A DNA stretch of 64,000 nucleotides from a virus, in IMG/VR virus record IMGVR_UViG_3300008116_000173, positions 8,522-72,521 of that record. One strand, 5' to 3'. Shown one piece after another: positions 1 to 38,868 of the stretch. The stretch's first letter is position 1; each line of letters opens with the position of its first letter. The translations under genes were made by a program, and so were the position numbers. Under the pieces are notes generated by a model. It was not told where the DNA came from. It was given only the letters and a program-made list of their open reading frames with translations, and did not search any database.

Positions 1-1
1 T

Positions 2-3000
2 AATAAATTACCTTTTCTTGAAGAAGCTGCTGCTAAAAATCCTAAATATGCAGCTGATTACATTAATGTTTTAGCTAACATGATGTATTTTGAAACATCT
101 AAACAGATGTTTTATGTAGAACAAATAAGTAAACTAAATGCTCAAATTTTAGATATAGATAACAGTGATAAAAGATTTTTACCACAGAATGAAGCTTTTC
201 GTGAAAAATTTGTTAAACAAATTGAATCATTAGAAAAACTATTATCAGAATCTAAAGAAAATTATAAAATTTTGTTTGATGAAAATGAACAAAGTAAAGC
301 ATATGATGAATATATAAAAGATAGAAAAGAAGAAGAAAATTTAGCACAACAAGCACAAGCTGAAGTTGATGCTGTTAATAATGAATTTGATCCTGTTAAT
401 AATCCTCAAGGTGCAGCTAAAGAACAAGCAGCTGCTGCAAGTAATGTTGCTGAAGATCTTAAAAATGAATTTGGTAATACACAAACTAATCCACCAACAC
501 TTAATGAAATATTAAATCAAAGTCAAGGTGACCGTGCACCTGCACCTACATTAAGTGATGTATTAAATCAAACTGCTCAACAAACTCCTGTTTCTACAGA
601 TGCTAAGAAAGCTGATATAGAAAAAAATTATTTTATAGTTACAATGTCTGGCTCTAGAACTATTGAGCAATTAAAATCAGAAAAAAATCCTGATTTTATA
701 GGAGACTATGAATTTTTAGATTTAGGAGATGGTTTAGTAGCATGGAAAACACCTAAAGATCCAAAATCAACAATTCAACAATATTTAATTGCAGATACTA
801 AATCAAATAGTAAATTAATACATAAAACATCTAAAGATGTAAAAGGTAATTTTGCAAGAATAAATGAACCTAATGTAAAAGCAGATGCTAAGTCTAGTAA
901 TGATAATTATGAATTAAGATTAAATAGATTAAATGAAGCTATTTCAAAAATTAATAATGCAGAACTAGCTGCTTTAGAAGGTAGTAAACCTGCTGAACCA
1001 ATTGCTACTCAAACACCTGTTACATCAACTGTATCTGATGAAGATCAAGATGAAGTATCTAAACAAATAAATAATGTATCAGTTTATTCTCATACTGATG
1101 ATTATGATAATGTTGATAAAATACCTTTAAACTCAATAGAAGGTAAAATAAAACAACTCTGGAATGATTTCAGAATGCTTTTATTTAAAGGTAAAAAAAT
1201 AGGTAAACAATATTTATTTGATCGTAATGAAAATGGTTTGCCTAATTATGAAAATAAATCAGGTATTGATGTTACTGCTTTAAATAATTTAAGAAAAGGT
1301 GATACTGTTAGATTTGAATCACGTCCTTTATCTGTAGATCCAGATGCTATTGCTATATTAGATTTAAATAATAAACTAATAGGTTGGGTTAGGGCTTCAG
1401 CTAAAAAACAATTAGAACAATTAAAAACAAATAATCAGTTAAATACTGAACAAGCTCAAACACTTCAACAATTTGAAGAATGGCGTACAACATTACTTAA
1501 TAAACTTAAATCAGGTGAAGAAGTATATAGTACAGTTCAAGAAAAAGGTACAGGTAACTTATACACTAAAACTATATTATTACCTACAGGTCAACAGATT
1601 GTAGATGCTAATATAGATATATTTAATTCATTTAGAGAAAAAGATACCATACAAAGTAAACCTATATTTGTATATGCAAGTAAAAAAGATGTTACAGGTA
1701 GATCAAAATTAGTATTACCTGAAACAACATTTACACCTGAAGAAAATGCAGCTATTCAAAATAGATTAGAAACATTAAATAAATATGATTTAAAACCAGG
1801 TCGTGTATTTAAATTAATTAAAGATTTAAATGATGAGTGGAGTTTAATGCCATTATATGCTAATAATATTACTGATGATATTTTTAAAGATATAGTTGAA
1901 ATATTAAAAAATACAGATAATGAATCTGATATTCAAATACTTAGTCGTGATTTAAATAAATATATTTATAGTACTACTAATGATAATAAATCAGCACCAT
2001 TATTAATTAAGAAAAATCAAATTAATCAAATTGTTTTTTATTTAGGTACTAAAAGTTTTACATTAGATGATATAAAATCAAAACCTGAAATTTGGAAACA
2101 AGTTAAAGATATACTTAAAAAACAAAAACAAAATATAGAGGTAGCAAACCTTAATCAATCATTTCAACAACAAGAGTATGCTAAAAACAAAACCTTGTTA
2201 ACAAATGTTAATTTATATGAAGGTGAATATTTTATACAACCTTATGTATCTTACGTAACAGATTTTAAAATTAACATAAATCCTAAACCTGTAACTACAA
2301 CACCAGCTGCAGCTAGTGCTCAACCTAGTACTAATCAACAACAAGTTGATAGGGCTGAACGTTTAAAACGTGCAGCAGCTAGGTATAAAAATCCAGATAC
2401 TGAAGGTGCAGCATCAGTTAGACCTGATTATAGTAAATATAATGAAAAGCAATTTAAAGCCTTTTTAAAGAAGAAATTACCTCAGCTTAGTATAGCTAAC
2501 CAAGACCAATTAAATGCTCTTAGAGGGCTTCTAATTGATCCTGTGGGGTATTTTAAAGGTAACCTTATATATTTATTTAAAGGTGCTGGTAATTTAACAG
2601 CTTACCATGAAGCATTTCACGGTGTATTTAGGAATTTATTAACAGTAGCTGAGCGTGAAAATATAATTAATGAAGCTAAAAGTAAGTATAAAGAACCTAC
2701 AAAAGAAGATTTAGATAACTTACAAAAACGTTTAAACAATAATTATACTACTGAACAATTAACTTATTTATATTACGAAGAACAATTAGCTGATGATTTT
2801 GCAATTTATACTAATGATAAAAACAACCGTAGCTTACTTAAAAGAATTACAGATGCTATTAGAGCTATATTTGATAAAATACTGTCCTATTTTGATTTAT
2901 TTGAGAGTGCTAATACCTCAAGTATAAATGATGTATTTGATGCTGTAAATGAAGGTAGATTTAAACAAAGACAATCTATAAGTAATAATGTAGTTAATTT

Positions 3001-6000
3001 ACCTTTGTTTCAAGAAGGTGCTTATTCACCTAAAGCTAAATTAAATATTGGTTTAGCTGATAGAATTAAAGTTGTATCATCATTAGCTGATAACTTTTTA
3101 GCTTTATTGAATCAACGTATAGTTAATGATAAATATGCTGATGTAAGTAAAAAAGATTTATTTAATGGTATATATGATGAATTATACAATCAATTAAATG
3201 AAGCTTTTGATTTAAGCGATTCAGATTTACTTGGTAATGTTATATTAAATTATGCTGATTTAATTAATCAGGATGTTAAAACTAATTTAAAAGAACGTGG
3301 TGTACTTGATAATTTTGATTATGAATTTATTAATAGTGAAGAACGTAATCCTGAATCAAAATCAACATTAACTAATGATGATAAATTAACATTAGCTGTA
3401 TCTGAAACTGAAGAAACTCAAATTAAAGAAGGTAAAGATTCTAAAGGATATAGAGAACAAACTTCTATTTCAGGTTTAACTACTGCATCTGCACGTATTA
3501 AATTATTTTTATCAGCTATACCTGTTTATGAAGAAAATGAAAATGGTGAATTAGTTTATGAAAAAAATGAATTAGGTTTACAAAAATATCATGATTTTAA
3601 ATCATTATATTATTATATAGAAAAGAACTTAATTGATAAATATACTTTTGAAGAACAATTAGCAGTGTTAAAAAATTTAACATCTTCTAATCCTGCTTTA
3701 ATAAGTGTATTAAATAAACTTCAAGTTAATCCGCCCTACATGAGTGCTGAAAGATTTGAAATGTTACAAAATGATTTTAAAACTAATTTTAGTAAACAAC
3801 AACTAGTATACACATTAGTTAAACATTCATATAATCCTGCTAATAATACTATTAGTTTTAAAATAATAGATGCTAATAGAAATAATTTACCTACTAAATT
3901 AAAAGAAAGTTGGAAAAATAGTTATACAGTTAATGTATCTGAAAAAGGTTTATCACAACCAATTAAATTAGAAAACACTCTTAAAAAAGAAATTAAAAAA
4001 CTTGATAATGAAAATGGTGCTTTAGATGTTGATGTTATCAGTTCATTGCTTAAAACTATTCATATTGATTTAAGTAAAAAAACTATAGAAGCTAATGCTG
4101 ATAGTAAAGTATTTGCAAGGGATATAAATGTTGTATTATCATGGTATATTAAAAATAATAATACTAATTATGATGCTGCTACAAGGATAGCTATTGAAAA
4201 TTTAATTAAACTTGAAACAGCTGTAATGATAGAAATGCATTCACAATCATTTATTGATGGTGAAGGTAATAATATCTGGACTATACAATTACCATCTGAA
4301 TTAAGTAAGTTTTTAGCTAAAGTTAAAAATCCTCAAAAACGTGAACGATTTATAAATGATTTCTTTAAAGATGTTTTTTATAAAAATTCTAATTTACTTA
4401 ACGAATTACAACGTAATTCTAAATTTGCTGAAATATTTTCAATATCTTATTTAGATTCATTTAAAGATGAAATAGGTGTTAAAAAAGGTATTGGATTTAC
4501 ATCATTATCACCAAGAGATTATTTAGCTATGAAAATAGCTTTATTTAATAACCTTGAGGTTAATAGTGAAGATCGTTTTACAATGCCTGTAAATAAATAT
4601 TTATATATTGTACCTGCTGATAAGAGTATGCAAGCCATTGTAGACTCTACATCATTTGATGTTTTCTTTGCACCAAACAATATTGAAGTAAGTACCAATA
4701 GTAAAATCATTGAGTCGTTTTATAATATATTTTTACAAGAAGCTAAACGTATAAATAAGTTTAATAAAATAAAAAATAGTTTTTTAACTGAAGGTTCACA
4801 ATCAAAATTTAAACCTACATTGCTTAATGAGTATGGTGTATTTAGTAAAAAAACATATCAAAGTGATTTAGTACAAAATTTATTAAATAAATATAATACT
4901 GAAGGTACATTAACTAATGAAGAATATGCACAATTAGCCAATAAAATGGATGGTCAAGCATTTAAATTTAATTATTTAAATAATGATTATTTTACATTTG
5001 CTAAAAATTTACCACAACAAACTAAAGAGTTAATTAAAAATACATTAGAAAATAGTTTACTTACTGATGATATGCTTGAAAAATCTTTAGCTGCGCAAAA
5101 AAATATAATTAAAAAAGAGTTAGCTTCATTTGTATATAAAACTTATGAAATAACTTTAAAAGAGTGGGAAAGTAAAGGCATAATAACTAAAAATAAAAAT
5201 AATGAATATGTTAATTCATTAGTTCAATTACCTTCTGTAAAAACAACTACTAGTGTAGATCAACGTATTAAAAATTTAGCATTAAAATATAGTGCTAATT
5301 ATTTATTACACAATATTGAACTATCTAATATGTTTAACGGTGATGTATCTCAATATAAACCTAATGATTTACAAAAACGTACTAATCAGTCACAAAGTTT
5401 TATGACTGATGGTAAATTTAATAATCCTGTAATAAGAACTAAAGTAAATAAAGATGTTATACATGATTATTCTTTAGAATCAGATTATACTAACATGGTT
5501 GATGTACTTAAACAATTAGGTGTATCTGATGAACGTATAAATGAAATATTAGATCCATATAAAAAGACTAATGTAACAGATGCTCAAGTAATAATTCATC
5601 CTGAATTTTTTAAACTTATTCATTATTCACAAGGTACTTGGACACCTGAATTAGAAACAGCTTATAACATAGCTGAAGGTATAATACCTGGTGATGCTAA
5701 AAAAAGTGTACAAACATTATTACGTGGTTTTAAACCATTTTATTTTGGTAAACGTTTTGATCCTGTAACTGAAACATGGTATTATGAACAAGTTAAATGT
5801 TCTATGTTTCCATTATTTAAATCTTATACAGATATTAATCCATTATTTGCTTTAAAACGTGAAGAAATGGAAAAAGATAATATAGATATGATAGCTTTTG
5901 AATCATCATTCAAAGGTGCTATAGGTTATAGAAGTGATTTTTTAGATGATAATAAAACTATATTAGAATTAGATGTTAATAATTTTGGTATTCAACAAGC

Positions 6001-9000
6001 TAACCCTGATCATACTACTGAAGGTAATGATTCATTACGTCAGCTTAAAATGATTTTACCAGGTACTATTGACACTAATGTTAGTTATAATGGTAGATCA
6101 GGTGCTGATATATTAGATGAAATATTATCACTTGAAGCTGCTAATTTAAAAACTGATTTAATTAAATTAACTAAATTATTAAATAATCCTTCGTCACAAG
6201 CTGAGTTTAATAGCTTTATTCAAGAAATGATTACTAAGCGTGGTGCTTATGAAGTATTAGTTAATTTTTTAAGTGTTGATGAAAATGGTCAATATATTTA
6301 CCCATTAGATAGTGGTATAACAAGTACTAAAGTACAAGAATTATTATCTAGTGTATTTACTTCTAAAGTATTAAAACAAAAATTTAATCATGGTGGTTCA
6401 TTAGTACAAGCTACTAGTTTAGGTCTTAAGTTTAGTAATTTAAGTGAACAACAAAAAAACCTTACACCTGAATTATTAGCTAAACAACGTAAATTAGAAT
6501 GGTTTAAACCAAACATTCAAACTGGTCAAATAGGTTATGCAGAATGTATTATGCCTGCATCAGCTAAAAAATTCTTTGATGAAAATGGTTTTTTAAAAGA
6601 TATAAATAATATACCTGATGCATTAAAAGAATTTATAGCTTATCGTATACCTACTGAAGGTTTACATTCAACAATGGCTATTAGAGTAATTGAATTTTTA
6701 CCTAAAGAATTAGGTAATTTTATATTATTACCTTATCATGTAACTACACAATTTGGTGCTGACTTTGACTTTGATAAAATTTATTTCTTTGGTAGAGAAT
6801 TTACTACAAGTGTAAATAAGAAAACAGGTAAAGTAACTTACAGAATACCTGAAATGAATTATGATGAAACTGAGTATGCTACTGAACAACGTTATAAAGA
6901 TTATGTATATTCTGTATTACAAGATAAAAATAATGAACTTTATTATGAAGATGTTATTACTGAATATGAAAAATATTATGGTGAACCAATAGCATCATTA
7001 TCTAAAAATGAAAAAATACAAGTTTTAGTAAGTGAAAACATACTAATGACACTAGATAAATTTAGTAAACGACCTATAGAAGAACAAAATACTAAAGCAG
7101 CTAGGAATAATCGTATAGTTGATAATTATCTTAATATTATTACATCTATTGAAAACTTAACTAATATTATTGCACCTTCAAGTTTTAAAGACATTGCTGA
7201 TTTTAAAAATAATTATTTTGGTGAAAATGAAAAAGTTAATTTCTTTGCTGATTTTACACAAAATAATTATAAAAATCGTAACCATACAGGTAGGATATTA
7301 AAAGGTATATGGGCTTTACATTTAACAGGTCATTCATATGCTCGTATATCAGGTTTATCAACTAAACAAAATGTAAATGCTCAAGGTTTTGTAGATTATG
7401 GTAATTCAGTTAATCTTGAAGGTGGTATTACTGAAGGTAATAATCATAGAAATGATTTTTCAAGATTATATAATGATGAAGGTAAATTAATAGCTCGTGA
7501 GTTAGGTAAAGTGATGGCTGCTGTATTAGATGACCTTAAAAATCCATTACTTGAAAGTTTAAATATTAACCAATATACAACACATGCGTTAGCTGCTATT
7601 CTTAGGGCAGGTTATTCTATGGAAACTATGTTATTGTTTTCAAGTCAACCTGCAATAACTAAGTTTTCACAACAGTCTATAGATAATTCAAGTGCTTTAT
7701 CTAAAAAAACTGAACGTTTTGACATTGAAAATTTAAAAGTATCTTATATTAAAATATTAAAAGATATCTATAATAAATATGAATATCAAGATAATCCTGA
7801 TATTAAAAGACTTATGGATACTTTAAATACAAATATACCTATTACAAATGCTGAATTAAAGGATATTTTAACTAATTTTACTAATGACGCTAATGGTAAT
7901 TTAATTAATAAAGTTACTGGTAAAAAACCTAGTGTTGAACAAGCTATGAAATACTATCATGTTCAGGTTAATGTTTTAAAACAAATGGAAAACTTAATTG
8001 CAATAGGTGATCAGTTTAAAAACTTAAATAATTTTTATACTATAAATAAAGAAGTAGGACCTCAAATAGAAGATATTATTGAACAACAAGATTTGTTAGT
8101 TCAAATATCTAAAGATGATATATTACGTGATTATGAAATTGATTCAATGGCTACTTTATATCAAACATGGGATACTCATTTAAATGCTTTAGATTACTTT
8201 TCTAAATACTTTCCTTATAGTAGTGAGCTATACATGGGTATTAAAAGTCAAATAGCTTTAATTCAAAAAAATAAAAGTATTAGCGGTATTAAAACTGATG
8301 ACCGTAAATTAATAAATAACTTTATTAGGACTTATTTAGATTATTCTTTTGAGAAGTTTGTTGATATACCATCTCAATCTGAAGAATTATTAAGATCATT
8401 CCCATCAATGGTTAAACAAATTACTAAAGGTACATCAGGTTTAAAGATAGATGATATATCATATGAAGAATTAAGTAAAAATCCTTTTATAGCTAATATT
8501 GAAGTTAAATTCAATAAAAAAACTGGTTTAAATCAAATTCAATTAAAAAGTGGTCAGTTAATACCTCAAGTAAAAGATAGTATCTCTAATGGGCTTATAT
8601 TGCTTTATAACAATAAAAAAACAAGAGGGTTAGCTGAAAATTTTGTTAAATATGCATTTTTAACTAGTGGTTTTTATACTGGTGTTAATATGTATTCAAA
8701 TCTTATAGATCCAAGTATATTAAAAGCTATGGAGTATACAAATTATAGGATGCAAACAACTAATGATTTAGTTAATGGTACTTTTACATTAGAAGTTGAT
8801 AATAATAGATTAATAGATCAATTAGTTAGAAATTATCCTTATAACTTTACTAATATATTTGATAGTAATTTATTTGATGAATCAACTAAAAATGGTTTAC
8901 CTAATAAATTAACACTTAATGAAGAAGCTTTAAATGAAGCTAATATGAGTGGTTATATGTTTGATACTAAAATTGGTATTTTAACACCACGTTATATAAT

Positions 9001-9952
9001 GGTACGTCAAAAAGATGCTGAATCTACTAAAAAAGAAGGTTTAACATTATATAAATTAGAAAATAATAATGAAGGTTTTAAATATGTTAAAATAAATGAA
9101 TTAGGTAAAAAAGGATTTTTAATAGAAGTAAATCCTTTAGAAGATATTGTTAATAGTGTTGTTAACAGAAATTTAGAAAAAATACCTGATGCTATACTTC
9201 AAGATCCACCTGATGGTGTTGAAAATGATATGATGCCTGAATTAAGTATGTCAAAAGATACTGAATATGATATGGAAGCTAGTATACTTGGTAAATCACA
9301 AGTTGAATTTGATGCTATAGATAAAGCTATTGCTGCTAAATCTATTACTCAACCTATAGTACAACCTACTGAAAGAAAAACTTATTCAGGAAAAGTAACA
9401 AGTTTACAGCCTAATCAAATATTTGTATTTGGAAGTAATCCTCTTGGTATTAATGGAAATCCTTCTAAAGGCACAGGAGGAGCAGCTTTAGTTGCGTATA
9501 ATATTGCAGGTGTTAAACAAGGTGAAAAAATGGATAATAAGTTATCTGATTCAGGAAAAGCTTGGGGAATTACAACAGTAAAAGCTCCAGGACAAAAAAG
9601 AAGTAAAACTCCTGAACAAATAACAGAAGGTATTAAAAAATTATATGAATATGCTAAACAAAATCCAACCAAAGAATTTTTAATTTCTGATTATTCAGGA
9701 ACAAATCTTAATGGTTATACAGGTCAAGAAATGGCAGATATGTTTGTTAATGCAGGATCAATACCTTCTAATATAGTATTTAATAACAACTTTGATAAAT
9801 TAATTACTACTCAACCTACTACTCAACCTACTGCACAAGATAATCAAATATTAAATTCACCACAATTTAAAGAATTTTACAATAAAGAATTAGAAAGTAA
9901 TCCTAATTTAACTGTAGAAGAAGCTTTAGATTATTATAAAAAATGTAAATAA
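2..9952 (+). CDS. Giant virion-packaged RNA polymerase of crAss-like phage (5'-truncated by the window), with zincin-like domain and accessory inserts
   Basis: The frame is open from nt 2, upstream of the ATG at 80. Catalytic-type motif QFGADFDFDKIY (~6749-6784) is preceded by AYRIPTEG, as in crAss-like two-barrel vRNAPs. AYHEAFH...YEEQLADDF zincin motif at ~2600-2800. More than 3290 aa. Confidence 0.9.
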   Translation, partial: NKLPFLEEAAAKNPKYAADYINVLANMMYFETSKQMFYVEQISKLNAQILDIDNSDKRFLPQNEAFREKFVKQIESLEKLLSESKENYKILFDENEQSKAYDEYIKDRKEEENLAQQAQAEVDAVNNEFDPVNNPQGAAKEQAAAASNVAEDLKNEFGNTQTNPPTLNEILNQSQGDRAPAPTLSDVLNQTAQQTPVSTDAKKADIEKNYFIVTMSGSRTIEQLKSEKNPDFIGDYEFLDLGDGLVAWKTPKDPKSTIQQYLIADTKSNSKLIHKTSKDVKGNFARINEPNVKADAKSSNDNYELRLNRLNEAISKINNAELAALEGSKPAEPIATQTPVTSTVSDEDQDEVSKQINNVSVYSHTDDYDNVDKIPLNSIEGKIKQLWNDFRMLLFKGKKIGKQYLFDRNENGLPNYENKSGIDVTALNNLRKGDTVRFESRPLSVDPDAIAILDLNNKLIGWVRASAKKQLEQLKTNNQLNTEQAQTLQQFEEWRTTLLNKLKSGEEVYSTVQEKGTGNLYTKTILLPTGQQIVDANIDIFNSFREKDTIQSKPIFVYASKKDVTGRSKLVLPETTFTPEENAAIQNRLETLNKYDLKPGRVFKLIKDLNDEWSLMPLYANNITDDIFKDIVEILKNTDNESDIQILSRDLNKYIYSTTNDNKSAPLLIKKNQINQIVFYLGTKSFTLDDIKSKPEIWKQVKDILKKQKQNIEVANLNQSFQQQEYAKNKTLLTNVNLYEGEYFIQPYVSYVTDFKININPKPVTTTPAAASAQPSTNQQQVDRAERLKRAAARYKNPDTEGAASVRPDYSKYNEKQFKAFLKKKLPQLSIANQDQLNALRGLLIDPVGYFKGNLIYLFKGAGNLTAYHEAFHGVFRNLLTVAERENIINEAKSKYKEPTKEDLDNLQKRLNNNYTTEQLTYLYYEEQLADDFAIYTNDKNNRSLLKRITDAIRAIFDKILSYFDLFESANTSSINDVFDAVNEGRFKQRQSISNNVVNLPLFQEGAYSPKAKLNIGLADRIKVVSSLADNFLALLNQRIVNDKYADVSKKDLFNGIYDELYNQLNEAFDLSDSDLLGNVILNYADLINQDVKTNLKERGVLDNFDYEFINSEERNPESKSTLTNDDKLTLAVSETEETQIKEGKDSKGYREQTSISGLTTASARIKLFLSAIPVYEENENGELVYEKNELGLQKYHDFKSLYYYIEKNLIDKYTFEEQLAVLKNLTSSNPALISVLNKLQVNPPYMSAERFEMLQNDFKTNFSKQQLVYTLVKHSYNPANNTISFKIIDANRNNLPTKLKESWKNSYTVNVSEKGLSQPIKLENTLKKEIKKLDNENGALDVDVISSLLKTIHIDLSKKTIEANADSKVFARDINVVLSWYIKNNNTNYDAATRIAIENLIKLETAVMIEMHSQSFIDGEGNNIWTIQLPSELSKFLAKVKNPQKRERFINDFFKDVFYKNSNLLNELQRNSKFAEIFSISYLDSFKDEIGVKKGIGFTSLSPRDYLAMKIALFNNLEVNSEDRFTMPVNKYLYIVPADKSMQAIVDSTSFDVFFAPNNIEVSTNSKIIESFYNIFLQEAKRINKFNKIKNSFLTEGSQSKFKPTLLNEYGVFSKKTYQSDLVQNLLNKYNTEGTLTNEEYAQLANKMDGQAFKFNYLNNDYFTFAKNLPQQTKELIKNTLENSLLTDDMLEKSLAAQKNIIKKELASFVYKTYEITLKEWESKGIITKNKNNEYVNSLVQLPSVKTTTSVDQRIKNLALKYSANYLLHNIELSNMFNGDVSQYKPNDLQKRTNQSQSFMTDGKFNNPVIRTKVNKDVIHDYSLESDYTNMVDVLKQLGVSDERINEILDPYKKTNVTDAQVIIHPEFFKLIHYSQGTWTPELETAYNIAEGIIPGDAKKSVQTLLRGFKPFYFGKRFDPVTETWYYEQVKCSMFPLFKSYTDINPLFALKREEMEKDNIDMIAFESSFKGAIGYRSDFLDDNKTILELDVNNFGIQQANPDHTTEGNDSLRQLKMILPGTIDTNVSYNGRSGADILDEILSLEAANLKTDLIKLTKLLNNPSSQAEFNSFIQEMITKRGAYEVLVNFLSVDENGQYIYPLDSGITSTKVQELLSSVFTSKVLKQKFNHGGSLVQATSLGLKFSNLSEQQKNLTPELLAKQRKLEWFKPNIQTGQIGYAECIMPASAKKFFDENGFLKDINNIPDALKEFIAYRIPTEGLHSTMAIRVIEFLPKELGNFILLPYHVTTQFGADFDFDKIYFFGREFTTSVNKKTGKVTYRIPEMNYDETEYATEQRYKDYVYSVLQDKNNELYYEDVITEYEKYYGEPIASLSKNEKIQVLVSENILMTLDKFSKRPIEEQNTKAARNNRIVDNYLNIITSIENLTNIIAPSSFKDIADFKNNYFGENEKVNFFADFTQNNYKNRNHTGRILKGIWALHLTGHSYARISGLSTKQNVNAQGFVDYGNSVNLEGGITEGNNHRNDFSRLYNDEGKLIARELGKVMAAVLDDLKNPLLESLNINQYTTHALAAILRAGYSMETMLLFSSQPAITKFSQQSIDNSSALSKKTERFDIENLKVSYIKILKDIYNKYEYQDNPDIKRLMDTLNTNIPITNAELKDILTNFTNDANGNLINKVTGKKPSVEQAMKYYHVQVNVLKQMENLIAIGDQFKNLNNFYTINKEVGPQIEDIIEQQDLLVQISKDDILRDYEIDSMATLYQTWDTHLNALDYFSKYFPYSSELYMGIKSQIALIQKNKSISGIKTDDRKLINNFIRTYLDYSFEKFVDIPSQSEELLRSFPSMVKQITKGTSGLKIDDISYEELSKNPFIANIEVKFNKKTGLNQIQLKSGQLIPQVKDSISNGLILLYNNKKTRGLAENFVKYAFLTSGFYTGVNMYSNLIDPSILKAMEYTNYRMQTTNDLVNGTFTLEVDNNRLIDQLVRNYPYNFTNIFDSNLFDESTKNGLPNKLTLNEEALNEANMSGYMFDTKIGILTPRYIMVRQKDAESTKKEGLTLYKLENNNEGFKYVKINELGKKGFLIEVNPLEDIVNSVVNRNLEKIPDAILQDPPDGVENDMMPELSMSKDTEYDMEASILGKSQVEFDAIDKAIAAKSITQPIVQPTERKTYSGKVTSLQPNQIFVFGSNPLGINGNPSKGTGGAALVAYNIAGVKQGEKMDNKLSDSGKAWGITTVKAPGQKRSKTPEQITEGIKKLYEYAKQNPTKEFLISDYSGTNLNGYTGQEMADMFVNAGSIPSNIVFNNNFDKLITTQPTTQPTAQDNQILNSPQFKEFYNKELESNPNLTVEEALDYYKKCK

Positions 9953-9968
9953 TAATAACTTATAAATT

Positions 9969-12900
9969 ATGTCACAAAGTTGTTTTAATTTTAGTCTTAA
10001 CGAAAATAAAAGAATAGCTGAAGATTTTGGAGAAATAGAAACTCAAAAATTAATTGAGTTGTATTTTCCAGATAAAAATCCTGCTAGTTATAATGAATTT
10101 ATAAGTAATGATAAAGTAAAAGAAGCTTTAGGTTTAAAAGGTATAACTGAAGCTAACAAACTTTTAAATACTAATTATAAAAAAGAAATTAGTAATCAAC
10201 AATTAATTAATTTAAAAAGTATTATTAGTCAAACTAATAATAAATTAAAAGGTGAAAATAAAAACATAGTATATAAATTATACAATGTTAAACAATTAGG
10301 TGAATCTGATAATTATACTTGGGGTATACGTGAAATAAAAGGTAATTTAGATGTTGATGCTAAAATTGAAAGAGCTTTAACTAGAGGTAAAACTGAACAA
10401 GCTAAAAATTTAAAAAATTTAAATGATAATAATCAATTAACATTATTTCAATTATCTAATAAACAAATTATTAAACCAGGAGTACAAGAACTATTTGATT
10501 CTAATCCTGAATTAGCTAATCAAGTATATGAAGCTTTAGGGTTTAAAAATCAAACACCTAAAAGATTAACTAAATCTGATAGAACTTTATCTAAGTATAT
10601 ATCTATTGGAAAATCTGAATTTGAAAAAGCTCAAAAAGAAGCCAATACCAAAAGTTCTGATTTTAATCATAATGGATTTAGATGGTATGAATCTGAGGAT
10701 GAGTTATTTGGTGGAAAAGATTGGAGAAAAGATGAATTACCACAAAGTAATAGTGGAACTTTTGAGGATGATTACTATAAGTTACAAGTAGAATTTTCTC
10801 AAAAAGCAAGAAGTTTTCATCCAGAAGATTTTGATGAAATGGGTTTTGAGTTATTGTATGATTTACCTCAAGATGAATTATTTCAAGCTATCAGATATTG
10901 GTATAAACCTTTAGAAGGAATTGAATTTACAGAATTAGCTGATATATATGACCCAAATTCTTCTTATAATAAAAAACATCCAGAAGATATTAAATCTAAA
11001 GATGCTTCTGATTTAAGAAAGTTTATTGAAAAAGAAATAGGAATTAAAAATAAACTATACCCTTCCTTAAACAACCAAATAACCCCACAACAAAAACAAA
11101 AAGCTCTACAACTATACTCTCAATACTTAGATACTATATTTCCTGAAAGAACAAATATTGTTTATTCTACATCAACACTAGATGATGGAAGTAATTTTTT
11201 AACAGATGATATAAATTATTCAAAAAAATATAAAGGTATTACAAAACCATATATTGTAAATTTAAAAAATTCTTTAAAAACTAATTATGGTATTAATATT
11301 GCAATTTCTAATATATTATTTGAAGAAAATCCTAATATAGATGTAATTTATGGTAAAGAAGGAGAAAGAATAAGTTATAAAGATATATGGGCTGAAATTC
11401 AACAAGATCCTGATTTAACACAAAATGAAGCTATAAAATTATTATCATCTAGACCAACAAGAAATATTAATGTTTTTGTTGTTAAAAATAAATCAGAAAA
11501 ATATGAATTAAATACTAAACAAGATATTGAAAATTTTAAAAATTTTATTAATAAAGAAAATAAATTAAATAATTTTGATTTAGATATTGATGAAAATCTA
11601 ACAAAAAAAGAAAAATTAACAAAATTTTTTACTCAATTTGGTTTTAAATTTGAAGAAGGAGATTTATCAACAGATTTATTAAAAAAAATAATATATGTTA
11701 ATAAAAATGATATTGAATTATTTATTAATAATTCTGTAAAAGCTTTAAGTCAACTTTTATTAGCTAATACTAATATAGATTTTAATAAACTTAAAAATTT
11801 AATTGAAAATACTGAAGAATTTAAAAGTTTATTAAATAATTCAACAACTGAATTTAAAAATAATTATTATCATATAAACAGTGGTAATAAAATTCCAATT
11901 AATGATTATAGAATTTATCAAAAAGATTATGAAAATATAAAAAAACAAGTAATTGAAAAATATTTAAAAGAATCTTTATTAGATAATAAAAATTTAAAAC
12001 CTTTACACAAATTAATTATTGATTTTATTAATTGGTTAAAAAATTTATTTGAAACTGCTACAAATTTAAAAGATATTACTGATAGTTTAATACAACAAGT
12101 TTTTGAAAATCAAAAAGAAATTATTATTAATTCTAATCTTTTAAAAAATAAAGAAAAAGTTAATTTAAATAAAGCTTTAAAAGAAACTAAACATGGTAAA
12201 AATATAATTAAAATATTTGGTGATTTTGGTTTAATTCTTACTGGTAGTATAAGTGCATCTGAACAAGGTACTATTTGGAGAAAAATTGGTAAACTTTTAC
12301 ACGATATTGATTGGATTGTACCTAAAGATTTTAATAAAGATTATTTACAAAAATTATTTGATGAATTTCCTGGAGCAACATTAATAAGACAATTTGATAG
12401 TCCTGGTTATTACACAAGAACATATGTTGTTCCACCAAAAGGATACACTATTGCTAATTTAGAATATTTTGAAAAAGAAAAATATAATGAAAAATATATT
12501 AAACAATATGATTTGTTAGATCAAAATAATAAAATAGTTAATAATTATAGAAGATATTATGATGTAACACCTGAAGGAAAAGTTTACGAAACAAAAGAAG
12601 TTTATAATGAAAATTTACAAAATGTTGATGTAAATTTAGATCCTGTATTAGTTGATTTTTTTGAAAATAAACAAAATTTAGAATTTAAACCTTATACTGT
12701 AAATGTAGAAGGTGTTAAACTACAATTATCAAATTGGTTATCTTCTTTTTCTGAAAAATTAAGATACGGTAGAGCTAAAGATTTATTAGATTATGCTTTA
12801 TTTATACCTAATGATTTAAATCAATCAAAAGATAATAAATCATTTCAATTAGAACCAACAATACAAAAAGATCCTACTGAAATTATTCAACAAGTTGATA

Positions 12901-15900
12901 CTTTATTAAATGATTATATTAATAACAATAATATAAAAGTTGAATTTAAAGATAGGGTTTTAGATGATAATGGTAATGATGTTGTAGCTTTTTACAATAG
13001 TGTTAAAAAAGTTATTGAGATTAATCAAAATCAACGTGATAGTAAAACATTACCTGAAGAATTAGCTCACCATTTACATTTAGCTTTAGGTAAAGATCAT
13101 ATACTTGTTAAACGTGCTTTTAACCTATTAAATAGGGTTGATTATAAAGCTATGTTAGGTCAAGAATATGTTGACTTATATAAAAATAATACAGATTTAT
13201 TAAAATTTGAAATATTAGGTAAATTAACTGCAGCAGCAGTACGTGGTGAAAAGATACCTTTACAAATGAATACTGTTGAAGGTAATAAGCTTTGGGATAC
13301 TATTAAACGTATGATTGATGCTGTTATAAAGTTATTTAAACCTGATGTAAATGTTCAAAAAGAACTTGATAATTTAAGTAATCAATTTGCTAATATGCTT
13401 AAATCAGGTGTTAAAGTTGATAGTGAAAAATCAATTAATGCTAAATTATATCAAACTAATAAAGATTTAATTAATTTAAGTTCTAAAATTAAACCTGCTT
13501 ACGTTTATTATACAACATTATCAACAGCACTTAAAAAGAAACAAAAACAATTTAGTGCATTATCTGAAGAATATAAAATTATTCAAAATCAAATTAATAC
13601 TATTGATATATCATTAAGAGAATTAATTCAAAATGAAAATGAATTACCTTTAATTAATCTTGTTGAAGAAACTATAACAACTGTAGCTCAAAACATTAAT
13701 GATTTTGAAATTAATTATTCTAAAGGTATAATGCCTTCAGAAAAAAATATTATTGAAGCTGTTGAAATACTTAAAAAGTTTTCAGGATTTCCTGGTACAG
13801 AAAGTAAAATTAATGCTTTAAAAGCTAGATTAATTAATTTTATTAAACCTTATTTAGCAAATAAAGCTTCTGAGGTATTAGGTAAACCTGTTACTGAGGA
13901 AGATATATCTGCTGTAACAAGTGATATTAATGTACTTGAAAAGAATTTTGGTACATTAGCAAGAACTGAATTTACATTATCACGTATGCTTGGTTTATTA
14001 ATTAAACAAAAGCAAAATACTATAGAACGTGAAAATAAGCAAGCTTTTGAACAAGTACAAGCTGCTACTAATAAATTAAAAGATTGGGCAGCTAGCAAAG
14101 GTATGTCTTTAGAGCAAGCTTTTGATGTATTACAACAAGAATACAGAGGTACTAGAATATTAACTAAAGAATATACTAGTGAATTTTATAAGTTAATTAA
14201 TGATACTTATAAATTAGATCCTGAAAAAGCTAAAGAAGCACGTGCTAAAATAGCTATTTGGGATGCTGCTAATAAAAAATGGATACCTAAATCTACTAAG
14301 TATAATAATCCAAATTACCAATTAATACATAAAAAAGGTAATGAAGATTTATTAAACTATTATAATTTCTTTAAAGATCAAATTCAAAAAATATCTGATA
14401 ATACATTACCTATTGAATTAGATGATTATTTTATACCTAATGTGTATGAAGAAACACTTTTAGATATATTAAAAACTGAAGATGCTGTTGGTGATAAATT
14501 AAAAGATAGTGTTATCCATATATTAGAATTTAATCCATTTGAAAAAATGGGTACTGTTGATAAGCAGATGGATGTTATTTATGATGCTGATTTGATTGGT
14601 GATAAAATACCTTTAAAATACATTCAAGCACTACCTGAAGATAAGAAATCTAAAAATTTAAGTGCAGCATTATTAAAATTCATGTATTTTGCTAATAGTT
14701 ATAATCACATGAATGAAATATTACCTATTGCTAACTTAGTTCAGGAAACTATAACAGACCCTGATACTAGTAAAATACTTCAATATGGTAACCCTAACTT
14801 AAACGTTGCTGCTAAATCTAATATAGTTGACATGGTTAAAACTATAAAAGAAATGCAGATTTTAGGTAAGATGCGTAAAGAGAATGAAATGTTTAATGTA
14901 TTAGGTTATAAATTAAACTATGGTAAATTAATTGATTTTGGTTTACAGTACACTTCTAAAATACGTTTAGGTTTAAATCCATTTGCTGCATTAGCTAACG
15001 TTGCTGTAGGTAACTTAGGTAATATTATTGAAGCTGCAGGTGGTAAATACTTTACATTAAGTGAATATTTTAGTGCTTTAGGTACCTTTACAACTGAAGC
15101 TAAAAAAGTAGATGGATTGATTAATCTATTTAACCCTTTGATGGAAATGGATGATTATGAAAATCTTAAAAAATTAGGTGTTGGTTCTAAAGAATACCGT
15201 GAAAAAATAAATGGTTTGTTATATGCACCTACACGTATGGGTGAAAAACAAATGCAAACTACTACTATGATTGCTATATTAAAGCATAAAAAAGTTGACA
15301 TTAAAGATAAAAAAGGTAATGTAACTGGTAGTATATCAATGTTAGATGCTTTTGATAGTAATGGTAAATGGGATACTGCTAAAATGGGTTATGAATTAAA
15401 TGAACAAGAAATTAATAAAATAACCAATAGAGTACATGGTGTTAACCAAATGATTCATGGTAGGTATTCAGCTAAAGATGCTGCTGCAATGCAACAATAT
15501 GCTATGTATAGGGCTTTAATGCAATTTAAAAAATGGATACCAGCTGCTGTTGAACAACGTTTTATGGCTAGACGTTATGACCCACTATTAGATGAAGAAA
15601 CTGAAGGTAGGTATTGGGCTTATGCTAAAGGTCTTAGACTTATGATGGCTAAATTAAAAAATGATGCCAAAAAGATTGAAGAAAATAAGTTTACTGAATT
15701 AGATTGGTATAACATGCGTAGAAATGCTATGGAAGTACTAATGATAGGTTTAATGTTTGGTTTAACTACTTTCCTTAAAGCTGGTGATGATGATGATGAA
15801 TTAAAGCGTAATGCAAGTTATAAGACTTATATGCGCCTTTTAAACAGCGTTAGTGGTGATTTAATGCAATGGTATTTACCAGGTACATTTTTAGATAAAG

Positions 15901-16139
15901 CTATGGTATTACCTGTAACTAAAACATTAAGGTCACTTGAAAGAACTATACAGTATACACCTTATATGTTTGGTGATTATACTAGTGATGCTTCAGGTAC
16001 TTATGAAGCTGGTGAACGTAAAGATGAAAATAAATTCTGGAGTAATTTCTTTAATAATGTACCTTTTGGTAGTACTACTGCTGACATGTACAGAACATGG
16101 TTTAAAGATGATGTAAGTTACATACCTCGTAATAGGTAA
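9969..16139 (+). CDS. Giant virion (ejected/cargo) protein of the RNAP gene block, with inserted domains
   Basis: 2056 aa directly after the vRNAP. LPEELAHH degenerate zincin-like motif, internal NTase motif TGS...HDIDW, and a C-terminal region (MQFKKWIP...RF, EGRY, hydrophobic helix) resembling large phage ejection proteins. Confidence 0.75.
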   Translation: MSQSCFNFSLNENKRIAEDFGEIETQKLIELYFPDKNPASYNEFISNDKVKEALGLKGITEANKLLNTNYKKEISNQQLINLKSIISQTNNKLKGENKNIVYKLYNVKQLGESDNYTWGIREIKGNLDVDAKIERALTRGKTEQAKNLKNLNDNNQLTLFQLSNKQIIKPGVQELFDSNPELANQVYEALGFKNQTPKRLTKSDRTLSKYISIGKSEFEKAQKEANTKSSDFNHNGFRWYESEDELFGGKDWRKDELPQSNSGTFEDDYYKLQVEFSQKARSFHPEDFDEMGFELLYDLPQDELFQAIRYWYKPLEGIEFTELADIYDPNSSYNKKHPEDIKSKDASDLRKFIEKEIGIKNKLYPSLNNQITPQQKQKALQLYSQYLDTIFPERTNIVYSTSTLDDGSNFLTDDINYSKKYKGITKPYIVNLKNSLKTNYGINIAISNILFEENPNIDVIYGKEGERISYKDIWAEIQQDPDLTQNEAIKLLSSRPTRNINVFVVKNKSEKYELNTKQDIENFKNFINKENKLNNFDLDIDENLTKKEKLTKFFTQFGFKFEEGDLSTDLLKKIIYVNKNDIELFINNSVKALSQLLLANTNIDFNKLKNLIENTEEFKSLLNNSTTEFKNNYYHINSGNKIPINDYRIYQKDYENIKKQVIEKYLKESLLDNKNLKPLHKLIIDFINWLKNLFETATNLKDITDSLIQQVFENQKEIIINSNLLKNKEKVNLNKALKETKHGKNIIKIFGDFGLILTGSISASEQGTIWRKIGKLLHDIDWIVPKDFNKDYLQKLFDEFPGATLIRQFDSPGYYTRTYVVPPKGYTIANLEYFEKEKYNEKYIKQYDLLDQNNKIVNNYRRYYDVTPEGKVYETKEVYNENLQNVDVNLDPVLVDFFENKQNLEFKPYTVNVEGVKLQLSNWLSSFSEKLRYGRAKDLLDYALFIPNDLNQSKDNKSFQLEPTIQKDPTEIIQQVDTLLNDYINNNNIKVEFKDRVLDDNGNDVVAFYNSVKKVIEINQNQRDSKTLPEELAHHLHLALGKDHILVKRAFNLLNRVDYKAMLGQEYVDLYKNNTDLLKFEILGKLTAAAVRGEKIPLQMNTVEGNKLWDTIKRMIDAVIKLFKPDVNVQKELDNLSNQFANMLKSGVKVDSEKSINAKLYQTNKDLINLSSKIKPAYVYYTTLSTALKKKQKQFSALSEEYKIIQNQINTIDISLRELIQNENELPLINLVEETITTVAQNINDFEINYSKGIMPSEKNIIEAVEILKKFSGFPGTESKINALKARLINFIKPYLANKASEVLGKPVTEEDISAVTSDINVLEKNFGTLARTEFTLSRMLGLLIKQKQNTIERENKQAFEQVQAATNKLKDWAASKGMSLEQAFDVLQQEYRGTRILTKEYTSEFYKLINDTYKLDPEKAKEARAKIAIWDAANKKWIPKSTKYNNPNYQLIHKKGNEDLLNYYNFFKDQIQKISDNTLPIELDDYFIPNVYEETLLDILKTEDAVGDKLKDSVIHILEFNPFEKMGTVDKQMDVIYDADLIGDKIPLKYIQALPEDKKSKNLSAALLKFMYFANSYNHMNEILPIANLVQETITDPDTSKILQYGNPNLNVAAKSNIVDMVKTIKEMQILGKMRKENEMFNVLGYKLNYGKLIDFGLQYTSKIRLGLNPFAALANVAVGNLGNIIEAAGGKYFTLSEYFSALGTFTTEAKKVDGLINLFNPLMEMDDYENLKKLGVGSKEYREKINGLLYAPTRMGEKQMQTTTMIAILKHKKVDIKDKKGNVTGSISMLDAFDSNGKWDTAKMGYELNEQEINKITNRVHGVNQMIHGRYSAKDAAAMQQYAMYRALMQFKKWIPAAVEQRFMARRYDPLLDEETEGRYWAYAKGLRLMMAKLKNDAKKIEENKFTELDWYNMRRNAMEVLMIGLMFGLTTFLKAGDDDDELKRNASYKTYMRLLNSVSGDLMQWYLPGTFLDKAMVLPVTKTLRSLERTIQYTPYMFGDYTSDASGTYEAGERKDENKFWSNFFNNVPFGSTTADMYRTWFKDDVSYIPRNR

Positions 16140-16157
16140 TTCAATATCAATGCAGGT

Positions 16158-16206
16158 AAAAAAAAGGGTTAGCTCACTTAAGAACTAACCCTTGATTTAT
16201 TTTTTA
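16158..16206. terminator. Probable bidirectional intrinsic terminator between the convergent blocks
   Basis: AAGGGTTAG (16164-72) / CTAACCCTT (16185-93) stem with an A-run on the left and a T-rich tract on the right. Confidence 0.8.
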
Positions 16207-27541: not shown

Positions 27542-29095
27542 TTATAAGTTTTTTAAGGATATATTATTATCTAATTCATTATCAACATACTCATCATTTT
27601 CAGTAAATTCAGCATCATTAAACTTAGCTATACGTTTATCAACCCAAGCTATAAGTTTATTTGCTTTCTGTCCATATACTTCAGTAAGTATTTTTGCTAA
27701 TGATAGATTACTATTTTCATAAATAAAACGTTTATGATTTTCAACAATATCTACTAAAGCCATACAGATTAACAACCAGTTTTTAATCTTAATATAAGAT
27801 GTAGAACCAGGTGCTGGTCTGAATTCAATAGTATAAATCTTGTTTTTCCTAGTATTAAATAATGCAGGTACAAAATTTACCCAGCAATAACGTGCTGAAT
27901 CATGATCATAACCACATTTATAACCTTTAGGATGGTCATTCTTTTTATTTACTTTTTTACTAGGATTATTATTTGCGCTAACATATCTAACAATAGCTTC
28001 ATAAGTAACATCTATAGCATAATTCCTATTAAAGCTTTGTAAGTCTTTAATATTAAAATTTATCATAGGACGACTATCTAAGAATCTACAATATGTATTA
28101 TTACGACGAGATTTAGGTAACATTGTAAATATCTCACGTTGTAATTTATGATACAAATAATACATTAAAACAATATTTTCTTTGTTAAAGTTAATATTGG
28201 ATAAATGCACATGCACACCACATTGATGATTTACTAAACAACGTTTAGTTAACTCATTACAAAGCTTTTTTAGTTTAAGTAAACCACGGTCACCCATTAA
28301 TACATCAGTAACATATTCCTTACCATAAGGATGATTGTTTTCAGCATCACGTAATGAACCATCATGAACACTAGAACAATTTAATGGTGCTAGTACATGT
28401 GCAGGTACTAAACCACTAATAGTTTCTATTTCTAAACCAAAACTATAACGTTTACCATAAGTATTATGATATGTTGTAGGTAGATTGTTATTATCACTTG
28501 GTGCATTAAATTTAATACCATCAACACGCATTTGTTTTACAAATGGTTCAATTTCAGATTTAAGTTTAAATATACCTGTATAATAATCTTCAGCGTAAAA
28601 TTTATTAAAAGTTGCATTAGCAAGTAAACTTGGTTTACCTAGATATGGTTTATTAGATTGTATACGTATATAACCTAATCTAAAAGCTTGATCATGATCA
28701 CAAGTATACTTTATTTCAGAATCAATTATAGGATAATTCTCAATAACAGCTGTTGCATTAAATTTAATAATATAACGATCTGATTCAAAATAATCTGTTA
28801 CAATATTAGGATCATCAGGCCTAGCATAAGAATCATGAAGTTGTATTAAATCATTTGAATATTCTACAACTTCACCTGTATATAACATTACCTCATTTTC
28901 ATCTAAATCAGGTTCATAAGGATTATTGTCATCATCATGTACTTCTGTATACTCATCTTCTGAAGGGTTAAACCAAAGATCATCAAGAGTTGTAGATATT
29001 ATATCAGTAGATGTGGGTACTACATCTGGTTCAGGAGCATCTGGTTCAGGTGGTGTTAAATTTTCAGGTATTGAATGATTTGGAATTATTGGCAT
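27542..29095 (-). CDS. Putative amidoligase (Amidoligase_2 / glutamine synthetase-like COOH-NH2 ligase)
   Basis: FGLEIET, HDGSL, KEYVT, CGVHVH, RYCWVN, TIEFR; acidic/Pro-rich N-terminal extension. Confidence 0.85.
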   Translation of the reverse strand: MPIIPNHSIPENLTPPEPDAPEPDVVPTSTDIISTTLDDLWFNPSEDEYTEVHDDDNNPYEPDLDENEVMLYTGEVVEYSNDLIQLHDSYARPDDPNIVTDYFESDRYIIKFNATAVIENYPIIDSEIKYTCDHDQAFRLGYIRIQSNKPYLGKPSLLANATFNKFYAEDYYTGIFKLKSEIEPFVKQMRVDGIKFNAPSDNNNLPTTYHNTYGKRYSFGLEIETISGLVPAHVLAPLNCSSVHDGSLRDAENNHPYGKEYVTDVLMGDRGLLKLKKLCNELTKRCLVNHQCGVHVHLSNINFNKENIVLMYYLYHKLQREIFTMLPKSRRNNTYCRFLDSRPMINFNIKDLQSFNRNYAIDVTYEAIVRYVSANNNPSKKVNKKNDHPKGYKCGYDHDSARYCWVNFVPALFNTRKNKIYTIEFRPAPGSTSYIKIKNWLLICMALVDIVENHKRFIYENSNLSLAKILTEVYGQKANKLIAWVDKRIAKFNDAEFTENDEYVDNELDNNISLKNL

Positions 29096-29097
29096 AA

Positions 29098-38854: not shown

Positions 38855-38868
38855 AATTTATTTTTTAG

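Follow-up and report, generated by a model that had tools for sequence, protein, structure and literature searches.

Two neighbouring giant genes of a phage raise the question of whether three regions within them are swappable domain cassettes that enter the host together with the phage DNA. The genes lie at the start of a 64,000-nucleotide (nt) stretch of the IMG/VR record IMGVR_UViG_3300008116_000173 (hereafter the window, bases 8522–72521 of that 72,521-bp viral contig), and an initial annotation of this DNA had placed the regions at 578–1021 (R1, 444 nt), 9344–9832 (R2, 489 nt) and about 10445–12851 (R3, 2,407 nt). Gene 1, whose 3' 3,316 codons occupy positions 1–9952, is an open reading frame for a putative carrier with a zincin-like part and a two-barrel virion-type RNA polymerase (RNAP); on the contig, its start lies 1,699 nt before the first base of the window, and its full product has 3,883 amino acids (aa; P0076). 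Gene 2 (9969–16139) is the open reading frame of a second transcription-block carrier (P0002, 2,056 aa). Both genes, and all of their features given below, are on the plus strand. The R1 slot lies between the N-terminal part and the zincin/RNAP body of gene 1, the R2 slot at the C-terminal tail of its polymerase, and the R3 slot in gene 2, where it separates the N-terminal domain from the conserved core. We observed three fixed slots of foreign composition, whose contents are replaced or absent in close relatives and whose borders are reused across unrelated carriers. The reading that we favour, and hold to be likely, is that the three regions are foreign in-frame domain cassettes in fixed slots of two transcription-block giants, exchanged by recombination and delivered with the DNA.

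We aligned the four closest relatives of gene 1 (P0077, P0078, P0079 and P0080) to P0076 and determined the identity by segment. The N-terminal part (aa 51–700) was 98, 86, 98 and 98 % identical, respectively, and the zincin and RNAP body (aa 921–3650) 97, 67, 67 and 67 %; after these four, identity of the polymerase body drops to about 39 % and below. In the same order, the R1 cassette (aa 775–895) was 30, 100, 26 and 26 % identical, and the R2 cassette (aa 3693–3835) was 17 % identical in both P0077 and P0078 and absent in P0079 and P0080. More distant homologs (37–47 % identity) aligned over aa 46–686 and resumed at about aa 880–980, leaving R1 unaligned, and most of them stopped near aa 3624, before R2. 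The R1 cassette (607–956) encodes about 120 aa with no assigned function, with 26–30 % or 100 % identity as compared with 98–100 % or 48–67 % in its flanks. Its left border, QTPVSTDAKKADIEK (581–625), includes DAK(K)ADIEK, common to the five aligned close relatives, and its right border, AELAALEGSKP (959–991), is kept in all five; DAK(K)ADIEK and AELAALEG are thus the R1 borders shared by the five proteins. A 3-nt indel at position 605, within the left border, was present in eight contigs of one sequencing run (X2). The R1 slot of P0080 holds an ADP-ribosyltransferase (ART) domain of the ART-PolyVal family (PF18760, E 2.2e-10 in Pfam). The R2 cassette (9374–9805) is framed by the linker AKSITQPIVQPTE (9335–9373), common to relatives, and by TTQPTTQPTAQ (9806–9838), which shares an 11-nt direct repeat with the left border; the empty site of P0079 reads AKSITQ-PSTQPTAQ, that is, the TQP linker free of insert. 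The C-terminal tail of gene 1 behind it (9866–9949) is kept in relatives with or without R2 and resembles a diverged copy of the junction motif described below.

A further insertion hot spot was noticed in gene 1 at about 2320–2400 (P0076 aa 1340–1366), where several 39 %-identical homologs (P0084, P0093) have 100–440 extra residues; gene 1 of this phage has zero insert there.

In gene 2, the variable slot is followed by the conserved core (aa 962–2056, 12852–16136), which is defined by homology to relatives. Homology to the core started at aa 947–980 in 34 of 38 core-bearing relatives, whereas in the remaining four it extended further into the cassette region. The relatives ranged in length from 1,154 to 2,388 aa, the shortest consisting of about 100 residues and a MFSL/LFQL-like word, directly followed by the core. 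P0007 was 99 % identical to gene 2 up to aa 192, where the junction motif ends, continued with 206 unrelated residues and rejoined gene 2 at aa 956; in P0006 the core was 98 % and the N-terminal domain 61 % identical, with a different middle. P0003, otherwise 100 % identical, as well as P0005 and P0009, carried 72 extra aa (216 nt, in frame) at 10817/10818, between aa 283 and 284, which are absent here; P0003 represents five sequences on four contigs. DNA was compared for two close relatives. One of them, L006, is without window positions 10416–11602 (breakpoints 10415/11603) and keeps the downstream part of the slot, termed module B, and the other, L007, matches the window with 99.2 % identity starting at 12839, differs from it before that point and has no module B. 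The slot is bordered on the left by LTLFQL (10437–10454) and on the right by KSFQLEPT (12837–12860), where the conserved core starts. The word QL.LFQL marks the left border of some relatives and the right border of other ones, and gene 2 of this phage has it at both; because it recurs at either border, we regard the FQL repeat as a true recurrent border. A metagenome search with the gene 2 core gave two loci, and an IMG/VR search with the whole of gene 2 gave six pattern matches and zero relatives.

The mosaics could be assembly chimeras joined at short conserved motifs, an explanation that we consider very improbable in view of contigs from four sequencing runs of four studies (X2, X7, X10 and X14), compared with window positions 1–16200 at 90 % likeness. 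Contigs of X14 (side 255) and X10 (side 30) join 9312 to 9807 via 1,107 other nt in place of 9313–9806, so that the same R2 replacement was found in two studies. A 27.7-kb contig of X10 matches 1–606 and 957–9312, with about 737 nt instead of the 350 nt at 607–956; X10 and X14 contigs have 215 extra nt at 10817, and in an X14 contig the match begins at 12833. The junctions of the window itself were reproduced by contigs of X2, which comes from a different study, in that a piece covering 1–3893 crosses R1 with zero differences and pieces at 6752–9412 and 9725–10507 cross both R2 borders. The five P0003 sequences on four contigs, and R1 and R2 borders that are not long repeats, likewise speak against chimeras. 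In favour of such misjoining, the motifs are 33–75 nt of near-identical DNA in many genomes of one sample and contigs often end near the cassettes; the summed depth of the X2 bins that contain motifs (541–1080 and 10261–11340) was 5- to 10-fold higher, which fits many genomes sharing short sequences. Depth and gaps are weak evidence here because they derive from contigs and not from reads, and the drops in depth over module B in X7 and X10, which are contig-derived, were not counted as absence. Colinearity of relatives across the three regions had been named in the initial annotation as an outcome that would refute the cassettes; at each of the three sites, however, close relatives as well as independent contigs had a different insert or lacked one, and the proposal withstood this comparison.

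The composition of the three regions set them apart from the rest of the two genes. GGA accounted for 2/6 glycine codons in R1, 10/17 in R2 and 13/30 in R3, as compared with 7/175 in the rest of both genes, and AGA for 4/4, 2/2 and 19/19 arginine codons, respectively, as compared with 47/126. In regions picked post hoc, Fisher tests of these shifts gave P values of 0.03, 2e-8 and 4e-8 for GGA and of 0.02, 0.15 and 6e-8 for AGA in R1, R2 and R3, respectively, the shift being weaker in R1 than in R2 and R3. The codon strings form clean runs over the cassettes and the rest of the contig prefers GGT, indicating that the switch to GGA and AGA codons reported for the three regions is real. CpG dinucleotides were counted 0 times in the 444 nt of R1, once in the 489 nt of R2 and three times in the 2407 nt of R3, as compared with 53 in 8322 nt and 22 in 3288 nt of flanking sequence (6.4–6.7 per kb). 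We take the cassettes to be of foreign origin because the codon shift and the loss of CpG are confined to them and because R2 and module B are shared with unrelated giant proteins.

The linkers at the regions, which had been described as low complexity, are P/T/Q/A-rich or N/Q/K-rich, and the peptide words said to repeat at the borders are where they had been placed: QTPV at 581 and 1010, TQP at 9347, 9809 and 9821, and FQL at 10446 and 12843. Short peptide repeats by themselves were rejected as evidence, given that gene 1 has 120 repeated 4-mer peptides as compared with 98 in shuffles, which is chance level, together with 713 repeated 3-mers. At the DNA level, we compared the longest word common to both borders with those of 2,000 random window pairs of equal spacing. 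The R1 borders share 6 nt, a length reached by 1785/2000 random pairs, the R2 borders 11 nt (48/2000) and the R3 borders 10 nt (53/2000). The claim that border sequences are reusable stood for TQP and FQL, which recur in relatives, on both sides and at an empty site. QTPV is not shared: relatives carry other linker sequences at that site, for which reason it was rejected as a conserved R1 border.

The content of R2 corresponds to a complete protein family. It matches free-standing proteins of about 145 aa from the first to the last residue, with 203 stand-alone homologs, and the 35 that were aligned have 20 invariant residues, including G30, N32, G38 and G46. An AlphaFold2 model computed with the family alignment as input had a pLDDT of 88. 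The best Foldseek rows for this model were macro domains (E 2e-4 to 1e-2), and VIA comparison matched it to TARG1 with a Z score of 11.5 (root mean square deviation 2.9 Å, 128–133 residues) and to the DarG macrodomain with a Z score of 10.3; the 50 VIA rows listed were all macro-fold chains, either natural macro-domain and related proteins or designed hydrolases on that scaffold. The predicted structure thus has a macro fold. By sequence, R2 belongs to the A1S_2505 family of NCBIfam (NF049995, E 6.8e-17, 61.7 bits against a cut-off of 45) and matches phrog_2072 (E 3e-18); the Pfam Macro family (PF01661) remained unmatched even at E up to 10, and every hit of a PDB sequence search was insignificant and unrelated. 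The Gly-rich loops are conserved, and handling of ADP-ribose by this domain is a prediction. No functional data were found in the literature on A1S_2505. R2-like cassettes with 75–93 % identity occur inside giant proteins that are otherwise unlike gene 1, which fits recent transfer, and in other giant proteins a macro cassette is directly followed by the junction motif. The P0077 cassette at the same site aligned with Pfam-verified NADAR segments (hhalign probability 94 %, E 1e-7, 91 columns), with 0 hits among PDB sequences, and the distant polymerase homologs P0097 and P0122 have a Pfam-significant NADAR domain directly after the polymerase core.

The R3 slot holds several parts in tandem. 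Downstream of the junction motif, part X (10545–11078, aa 193–370) has no assigned function and contains the 216-nt indel site at 10817/10818. The next part (11079–11558), between ITPQQKQKALQLYSQYL (aa 371–392) and KQDIENFKNFINKE, was recognized by a local profile as a degenerate remnant of ART-PolyVal. The profile was seeded on the Pfam-verified ART-PolyVal domain of P0009, and the stretch of gene 2 at aa 415–538 resembled the C-terminal two thirds of that domain (E 1.4e-8), with the motif KQDIENFKNF from residue 517. In the remnant, YSTS replaces YHGT, and the GxYF part and the catalytic His are missing. Pfam gave no hit on the remnant itself; the relatives P0009 and P0080 pass PF18760, P0009 being the single hit when Pfam was run on whole close relatives.

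Module B (11610–12818, aa 548–950) consists of a helical part and a Pol-beta-type nucleotidyltransferase. A search of 1.84 billion representatives returned 153 homologs, some of which stand alone while others form part of larger proteins (up to 6,332 aa) without preference for a position, and ten other giant proteins contain the module at 58–66 % identity, at positions from residue 30 to residue 2955. It shows the motifs LTGS and HDIDW, with the third acidic residue located in VDFF, and across 26 sequences H231, D232, D234, D349 and K390 reach a conservation of 90 % or more. In a model with a pLDDT of 80, residues 188–405 matched ANT(2'')-Ia (Z 10.1), LnuA (Z 9.7), TM1012 and MenT3 (Z 8.9) in VIA, where the 50 rows listed were all nucleotidyltransferase-fold proteins. 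The assignment is made from the VIA Z scores and the motifs, because Foldseek was weak (nothing at E ≤ 0.001, best E 0.018); on the modelled fold and its motifs, module B is a Pol-beta-type nucleotidyltransferase. Pfam on 15 short module B homologs gave none, and the ESM Atlas gave no usable hit for module B or the R1 cassette. Of the enzyme-like domains expected in these regions, the macro fold in R2 and the Pol-beta nucleotidyltransferase in R3 were thus recovered, and the ART-like part was found without its catalytic His.

These domain assignments bear on the possibility that the variable regions are permissive linkers in which domains accrete and decay, their contents serving transcription, assembly or nothing. 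The degenerate ART payload fits this idea, as do an R1 cassette that matches no family or fold, the empty and viable R2 sites of P0079 and P0080, and the empty PADLOC search. We nevertheless consider it rather unlikely, since the slots contain domains of conflict-system types (ART, macro, NADAR and Pol-beta nucleotidyltransferase), of which ARTs and Pol-beta nucleotidyltransferases are listed for polyvalent proteins (PMC5512222). The R2 domain retains its 20 invariant residues across 35 members, and its 75–93 % identity across unrelated carriers speaks for selection. Self-mobile elements such as inteins or homing-endonuclease inserts would also insert precisely and in frame, and at fixed sites they would be present in some relatives and absent from others. 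Pfam and NCBIfam scans found no Hint, intein or endonuclease family in any part, for which reason this reading was rejected, and the cassettes consist of ordinary enzyme domains, which are encoded by free-standing genes as well; we give self-mobility almost no credence.

The junction motif is IKPGVQELFDSNPELANQVYEALGF (10470–10544, 75 nt, gene 2 aa 168–192). Its consensus, KPGVxELFxSNPELANxVYEALGF, was present in 46/173 giant proteins, at any position. In eight of the ten proteins with a 58–66 % identical module B, the motif lies within 25 residues of one end of the module, and it is absent from P0038 and P0040. In IMG/VR, 82 stretches matched a degenerate pattern of 11 motif residues in which third codon positions were left free, a sample thus selected for the peptide. 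The reading frame was open for 100 codons on both sides in 55/69 unique motif copies. Identity at third codon positions was 0.74 per site in the motif as compared with 0.39 in the flanks, which are unrelated. Single codons were close to fixed: CCT was used in 73/74 copies, GCT in 74/74 and TCT in 70/74, as compared with shares among synonymous codons in the flanks of 0.63, 0.63 and 0.41, respectively, and the first Leu was encoded by CTA in 54/74, as compared with a share of 0.11. We paired 70 unique loci in all combinations (2,415 pairs), and the motif (75 nt) had a median identity of 0.81. When the 400-nt flanks of these pairs were compared, both were shared in 0 pairs, the left only in 3, the right only in 7 and neither in 2,362, with 43 intermediate; the absence of pairs sharing both flanks may reflect dereplication of the collection. 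All ten informative pairs were one-sided, indicating that homology between related loci ends at the motif.

The conservation of the peptide admits an explanation at the protein level, in which the border motifs are cleavage sites for the zincin or a head protease that frees the payloads, or a tag without which no payload would be packaged or ejected, and the exchange is due to illegitimate or flank-driven recombination. We regard this as possible, though not the probable account of the locus, and as a serious rival where the conservation of the peptide is concerned; the two roles of the motif, in the protein and in recombination, are not mutually exclusive. Gene 1 retains the HEAFH zincin motif, the amino-acid conservation of the motif is very high, and its position, often within the first 100 residues of giant proteins, is tag-like. 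Moreover, cleavage of fused transcription-block polyproteins has been suggested (bioRxiv 10.1101/2020.03.07.982082) and autoproteolytic release by metallopeptidase domains has been proposed for polyvalent proteins (PMC5512222). However, a role in the protein alone leaves unexplained both the near-fixed synonymous codons, including the rare CTA, and the end of flank similarity at the motif in 10/10 pairs.

Several IMG/VR contigs carry two to four copies of the motif. On some single viral contigs (L039/L040/L045, L051/L052 and L059/L060), three to four copies lie within a few kb, which suggests that a single giant gene can carry several tagged cassettes in tandem. Judged by eye only, the 28 residues that end gene 1 (…ELESNPNLTVEEALDYY…) resemble ELFxSNPELAN in a diverged form. 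In the literature, no paper was found in main texts on the NPELAN motif, on polyvalent proteins of crAss-like phages or, among the papers listed, on macro cassettes or anti-defence in Crassvirales, and supplements may list related architectures.

The terminase (TerL), portal and major capsid protein of the phage match PHROG families, the major capsid protein being 39–42 % identical to those of crAss-like phages of Bacteroides, Flavobacterium and Cellulophaga, and the public runs with this DNA are labelled as plankton, freshwater, marine, crustacean and fungus metagenomes. From these genome markers and run labels, we assign the source of the window to an aquatic crAss-like phage; megablast of window positions 1–16200 against GenBank phages gave zero matches. 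A whole-protein search found 98 homologs of gene 1, and tblastn matched it to 108 phage records with features annotated 'putative RNA polymerase', the annotated crAss-like RNAP genes giving E values of 1e-38 to 6e-27. The zincin motif HEAFH (2606–2620), as HE[AS]FH, and the catalytic polymerase motif DFDFD (6761–6775), as DFD[FIVL]D, are each kept in 50/52 homologs; the latter belongs to a motif class described in bioRxiv 10.1101/2020.03.07.982082. A phmmer search of the polymerase core (aa 1001–3633) against PDB sequences gave 0 hits, and the link to the solved gp66 structure is therefore made through the motifs and the annotated homologs. Judging by the DFDxD motif, homology and the crAss-like genome, gene 1 encodes a crAss-like virion-type RNAP carrier. 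Gene 2 has 73 homologs, and its core matches crAss-like genes annotated 'putative RNA-polymerase subunit' (E 7e-18). Pfam searches with both whole window proteins and seven of their parts, at E up to 10, yielded nothing above any gathering score. The motifs and the tblastn matches to annotated crAss RNAP genes bear out the placement of both carriers in the crAss-like RNAP block. In gene 1, the zincin HEAFH and the polymerase DFDFD are fused in a single protein of 3,883 aa, and in phi14:2 zincin and polymerase are separate, neighbouring gene products (bioRxiv 10.1101/2020.03.07.982082).

In crAss-like phages, proteins of this block are part of the particle: gp65–67 of phi14:2 are virion components (bioRxiv 10.1101/2020.03.07.982082), and gp47/49/50 of PhiCrAss001 were detected in virions by mass spectrometry (PMC10172136). 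The present carriers resemble both sets in the DFDxD motif of the putative two-barrel RNAP, a zincin-bearing partner, their order after the tail genes and their giant size. By analogy with these orthologs, the capsid would contain the carriers together with their payloads and release them either before the DNA or along with it, so that the payloads would reach the cell before phage gene expression. Homologous recombination between phages that infect the same cell would account for the gain, loss and replacement of cassettes, a process suggested by the observed pattern, with crossovers in conserved carrier sequence or in short reused linkers, namely the TQP repeats, QL.LFQL and, above all, the 75-nt element. 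To judge from the types of domain, ADP-ribose-related payloads (macro here, NADAR or ART in relatives) may act on host ADP-ribosylation defences or their targets, and the R2 slot may hold enzymes that remove ADP-ribose. An eraser mounted on the tail of a polymerase that reads freshly injected DNA would be a reasonable arrangement, because phage NADAR undoes DarT1 marks and the predicted macro fold here matches that of DarG.

A number of points weigh against the reading of exchangeable cassettes delivered with the DNA. Delivery in this phage is argued from orthologs and an anti-defence role of the payloads from the domain types. PADLOC gave zero hits on seven parts (best E 0.54), searches of Pfam, PADLOC, the ESM Atlas and NCBIfam gave neither a family nor a similar fold or protein for the R1 cassette of this phage, and the ART part, which is without its catalytic His, indicates that at least one payload may be dead. 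At the R2 site of relatives, the Pfam matches are below threshold, both for NADAR in P0077 (E 0.075) and for Macro in P0078 (E 0.031). The R1 borders are without a DNA repeat beyond chance, and the synonymous conservation of the motif could reflect another nucleotide-level function or very recent spread. Finally, the assembly evidence consists of contigs and not of raw reads, and for most of the relatives the only record is a protein predicted from a metagenome assembly.

Injected multi-domain proteins have been described before. Polyvalent proteins are giant polypeptides that string together ARTs, Pol-beta nucleotidyltransferases and metallopeptidases and are predicted to enter with the DNA (PMC5512222). 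They resemble gene 1, with its zincin motif, RNAP and macro fold, and gene 2, with its ART remnant and Pol-beta nucleotidyltransferase, and relatives of both genes carry Pfam ART-PolyVal. They differ in that the carriers here are a crAss-like virion RNAP and its neighbour ('crAss' occurs 0 times in the available text of PMC5512222), in that the slots are fixed and near-isogenic relatives differ only in slot content, and in that the borders are short and conserved at the nucleotide level ('linker' occurs 0 times in the same text). In that paper, recombination of cassettes is no more than suggested, and this for a kinase locus of Verrucomicrobium, and polymorphic toxin cassettes are alluded to. 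The initial annotation had presented the plug-in architecture as, to its knowledge, uncharacterized; injected polyvalent proteins and, for another system, the idea of cassette recombination are already in PMC5512222. The studies of phi14:2 and PhiCrAss001 describe the cores of the transcription-block proteins. Large multidomain proteins of this block, with an occasional PDDEXK domain, were reported by Yutin et al. 2021 (PMC7886860), whose available text does not note exchangeable cassettes or border motifs.

The arrangement at the borders also invites comparison with bacterial toxins. In polymorphic toxins such as CdiA and Rhs, a conserved motif demarcates swappable C-terminal toxins. The likeness consists in a short conserved border between constant carrier and variable payload, which provides homology for replacement, and such motifs were found here where the homology between loci ends (ELFxSNPELAN, and also LFQL and TQP). 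In contrast to those toxins, the payloads here are internal as well as terminal, with several in tandem, and the carrier, instead of being a toxin secreted by bacteria, is by its orthologs a protein of the phage virion. No cognate immunity gene was found after a cassette, the cassettes being internal or followed by a conserved tail, and replication-block genes lie downstream of gene 2.

A functional parallel for the R2 slot is AdfN, an orphan NADAR enzyme of T-even phages that acts as an anti-DarT factor and undoes the DarT1 modification of phage DNA (PMC11825919). Like AdfN, the NADAR and macro (DarG-like fold) domains that appear to occupy the R2 slot in the gene 1 family would be phage-borne removers of ADP-ribose; AdfN is a free-standing expressed gene, whereas the putative eraser here is fused to the polymerase tail, in a protein that is packaged in relatives. 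A1S_2505 (NF049995, PHROG 2072) is likewise named as a family of free-standing phage non-structural proteins, whereas R2 is an internal module of a 3,883-aa protein, and the macro fold of this member was seen in a predicted model.

A wider proposal, which we put forward tentatively and would not ourselves bet on, is that the 75-nt element, together with LFQL and TQP, might be a selected in-frame recombination joint across Bacteroidota phages, a counterpart of the polymorphic-toxin border that would move any tagged effector between the injected giants of unrelated phages. The alleles of the polymerase-tail slot (macro, NADAR-like or none) might then be erasers of ADP-ribosylation on nucleic acids that clean the incoming template in cis before the first transcript, with a content that tracks local DarT-type defences.

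Few phages are as abundant as the crAss-like ones, and their ways of coping with host defences are poorly understood. If pre-made enzymes are indeed delivered with the DNA, the content of the slots would be a rapidly exchangeable determinant of host range that acts before phage expression. The near-isogenic variants are natural experiments for the function of orphan domains, with macro, NADAR-like, other or empty R2 slots and ART-PolyVal or unassigned R1 slots, and the junction element offers both a searchable handle for payloads in metagenomes and a testable case of in-frame recombination signals. The cassette slots also explain the large variation in length of crAss-like transcription-block proteins. 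What the present analysis adds is a near-isogenic allelic series for each slot, the alternation of macro and NADAR-like domains at the polymerase tail, and a junction element that is conserved at the nucleotide level with one-sided homology.

Some observations concern the surroundings of the two genes. On the contig upstream of the window (L004 1161–4715), a protein of 1,185 aa precedes the transcription block; it has repeated GG-rich stretches of the type 'MGG'/'GGM' and matched no PHROG family. This protein and one of 682 aa may be the equivalents of the smaller cargo or tail proteins known from crAss-like phages. Downstream of gene 2, genes on the opposite strand form the replication block. 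Two adjacent genes at 27542–30621 on the minus strand match amidoligase and glutamine amidotransferase PHROGs, a pair that may serve nucleotide or DNA modification chemistry in the replication block. Also on the minus strand, at 38868–38936, ARAGORN called a tRNA-like gene to which it assigned a two-base anticodon and no type.

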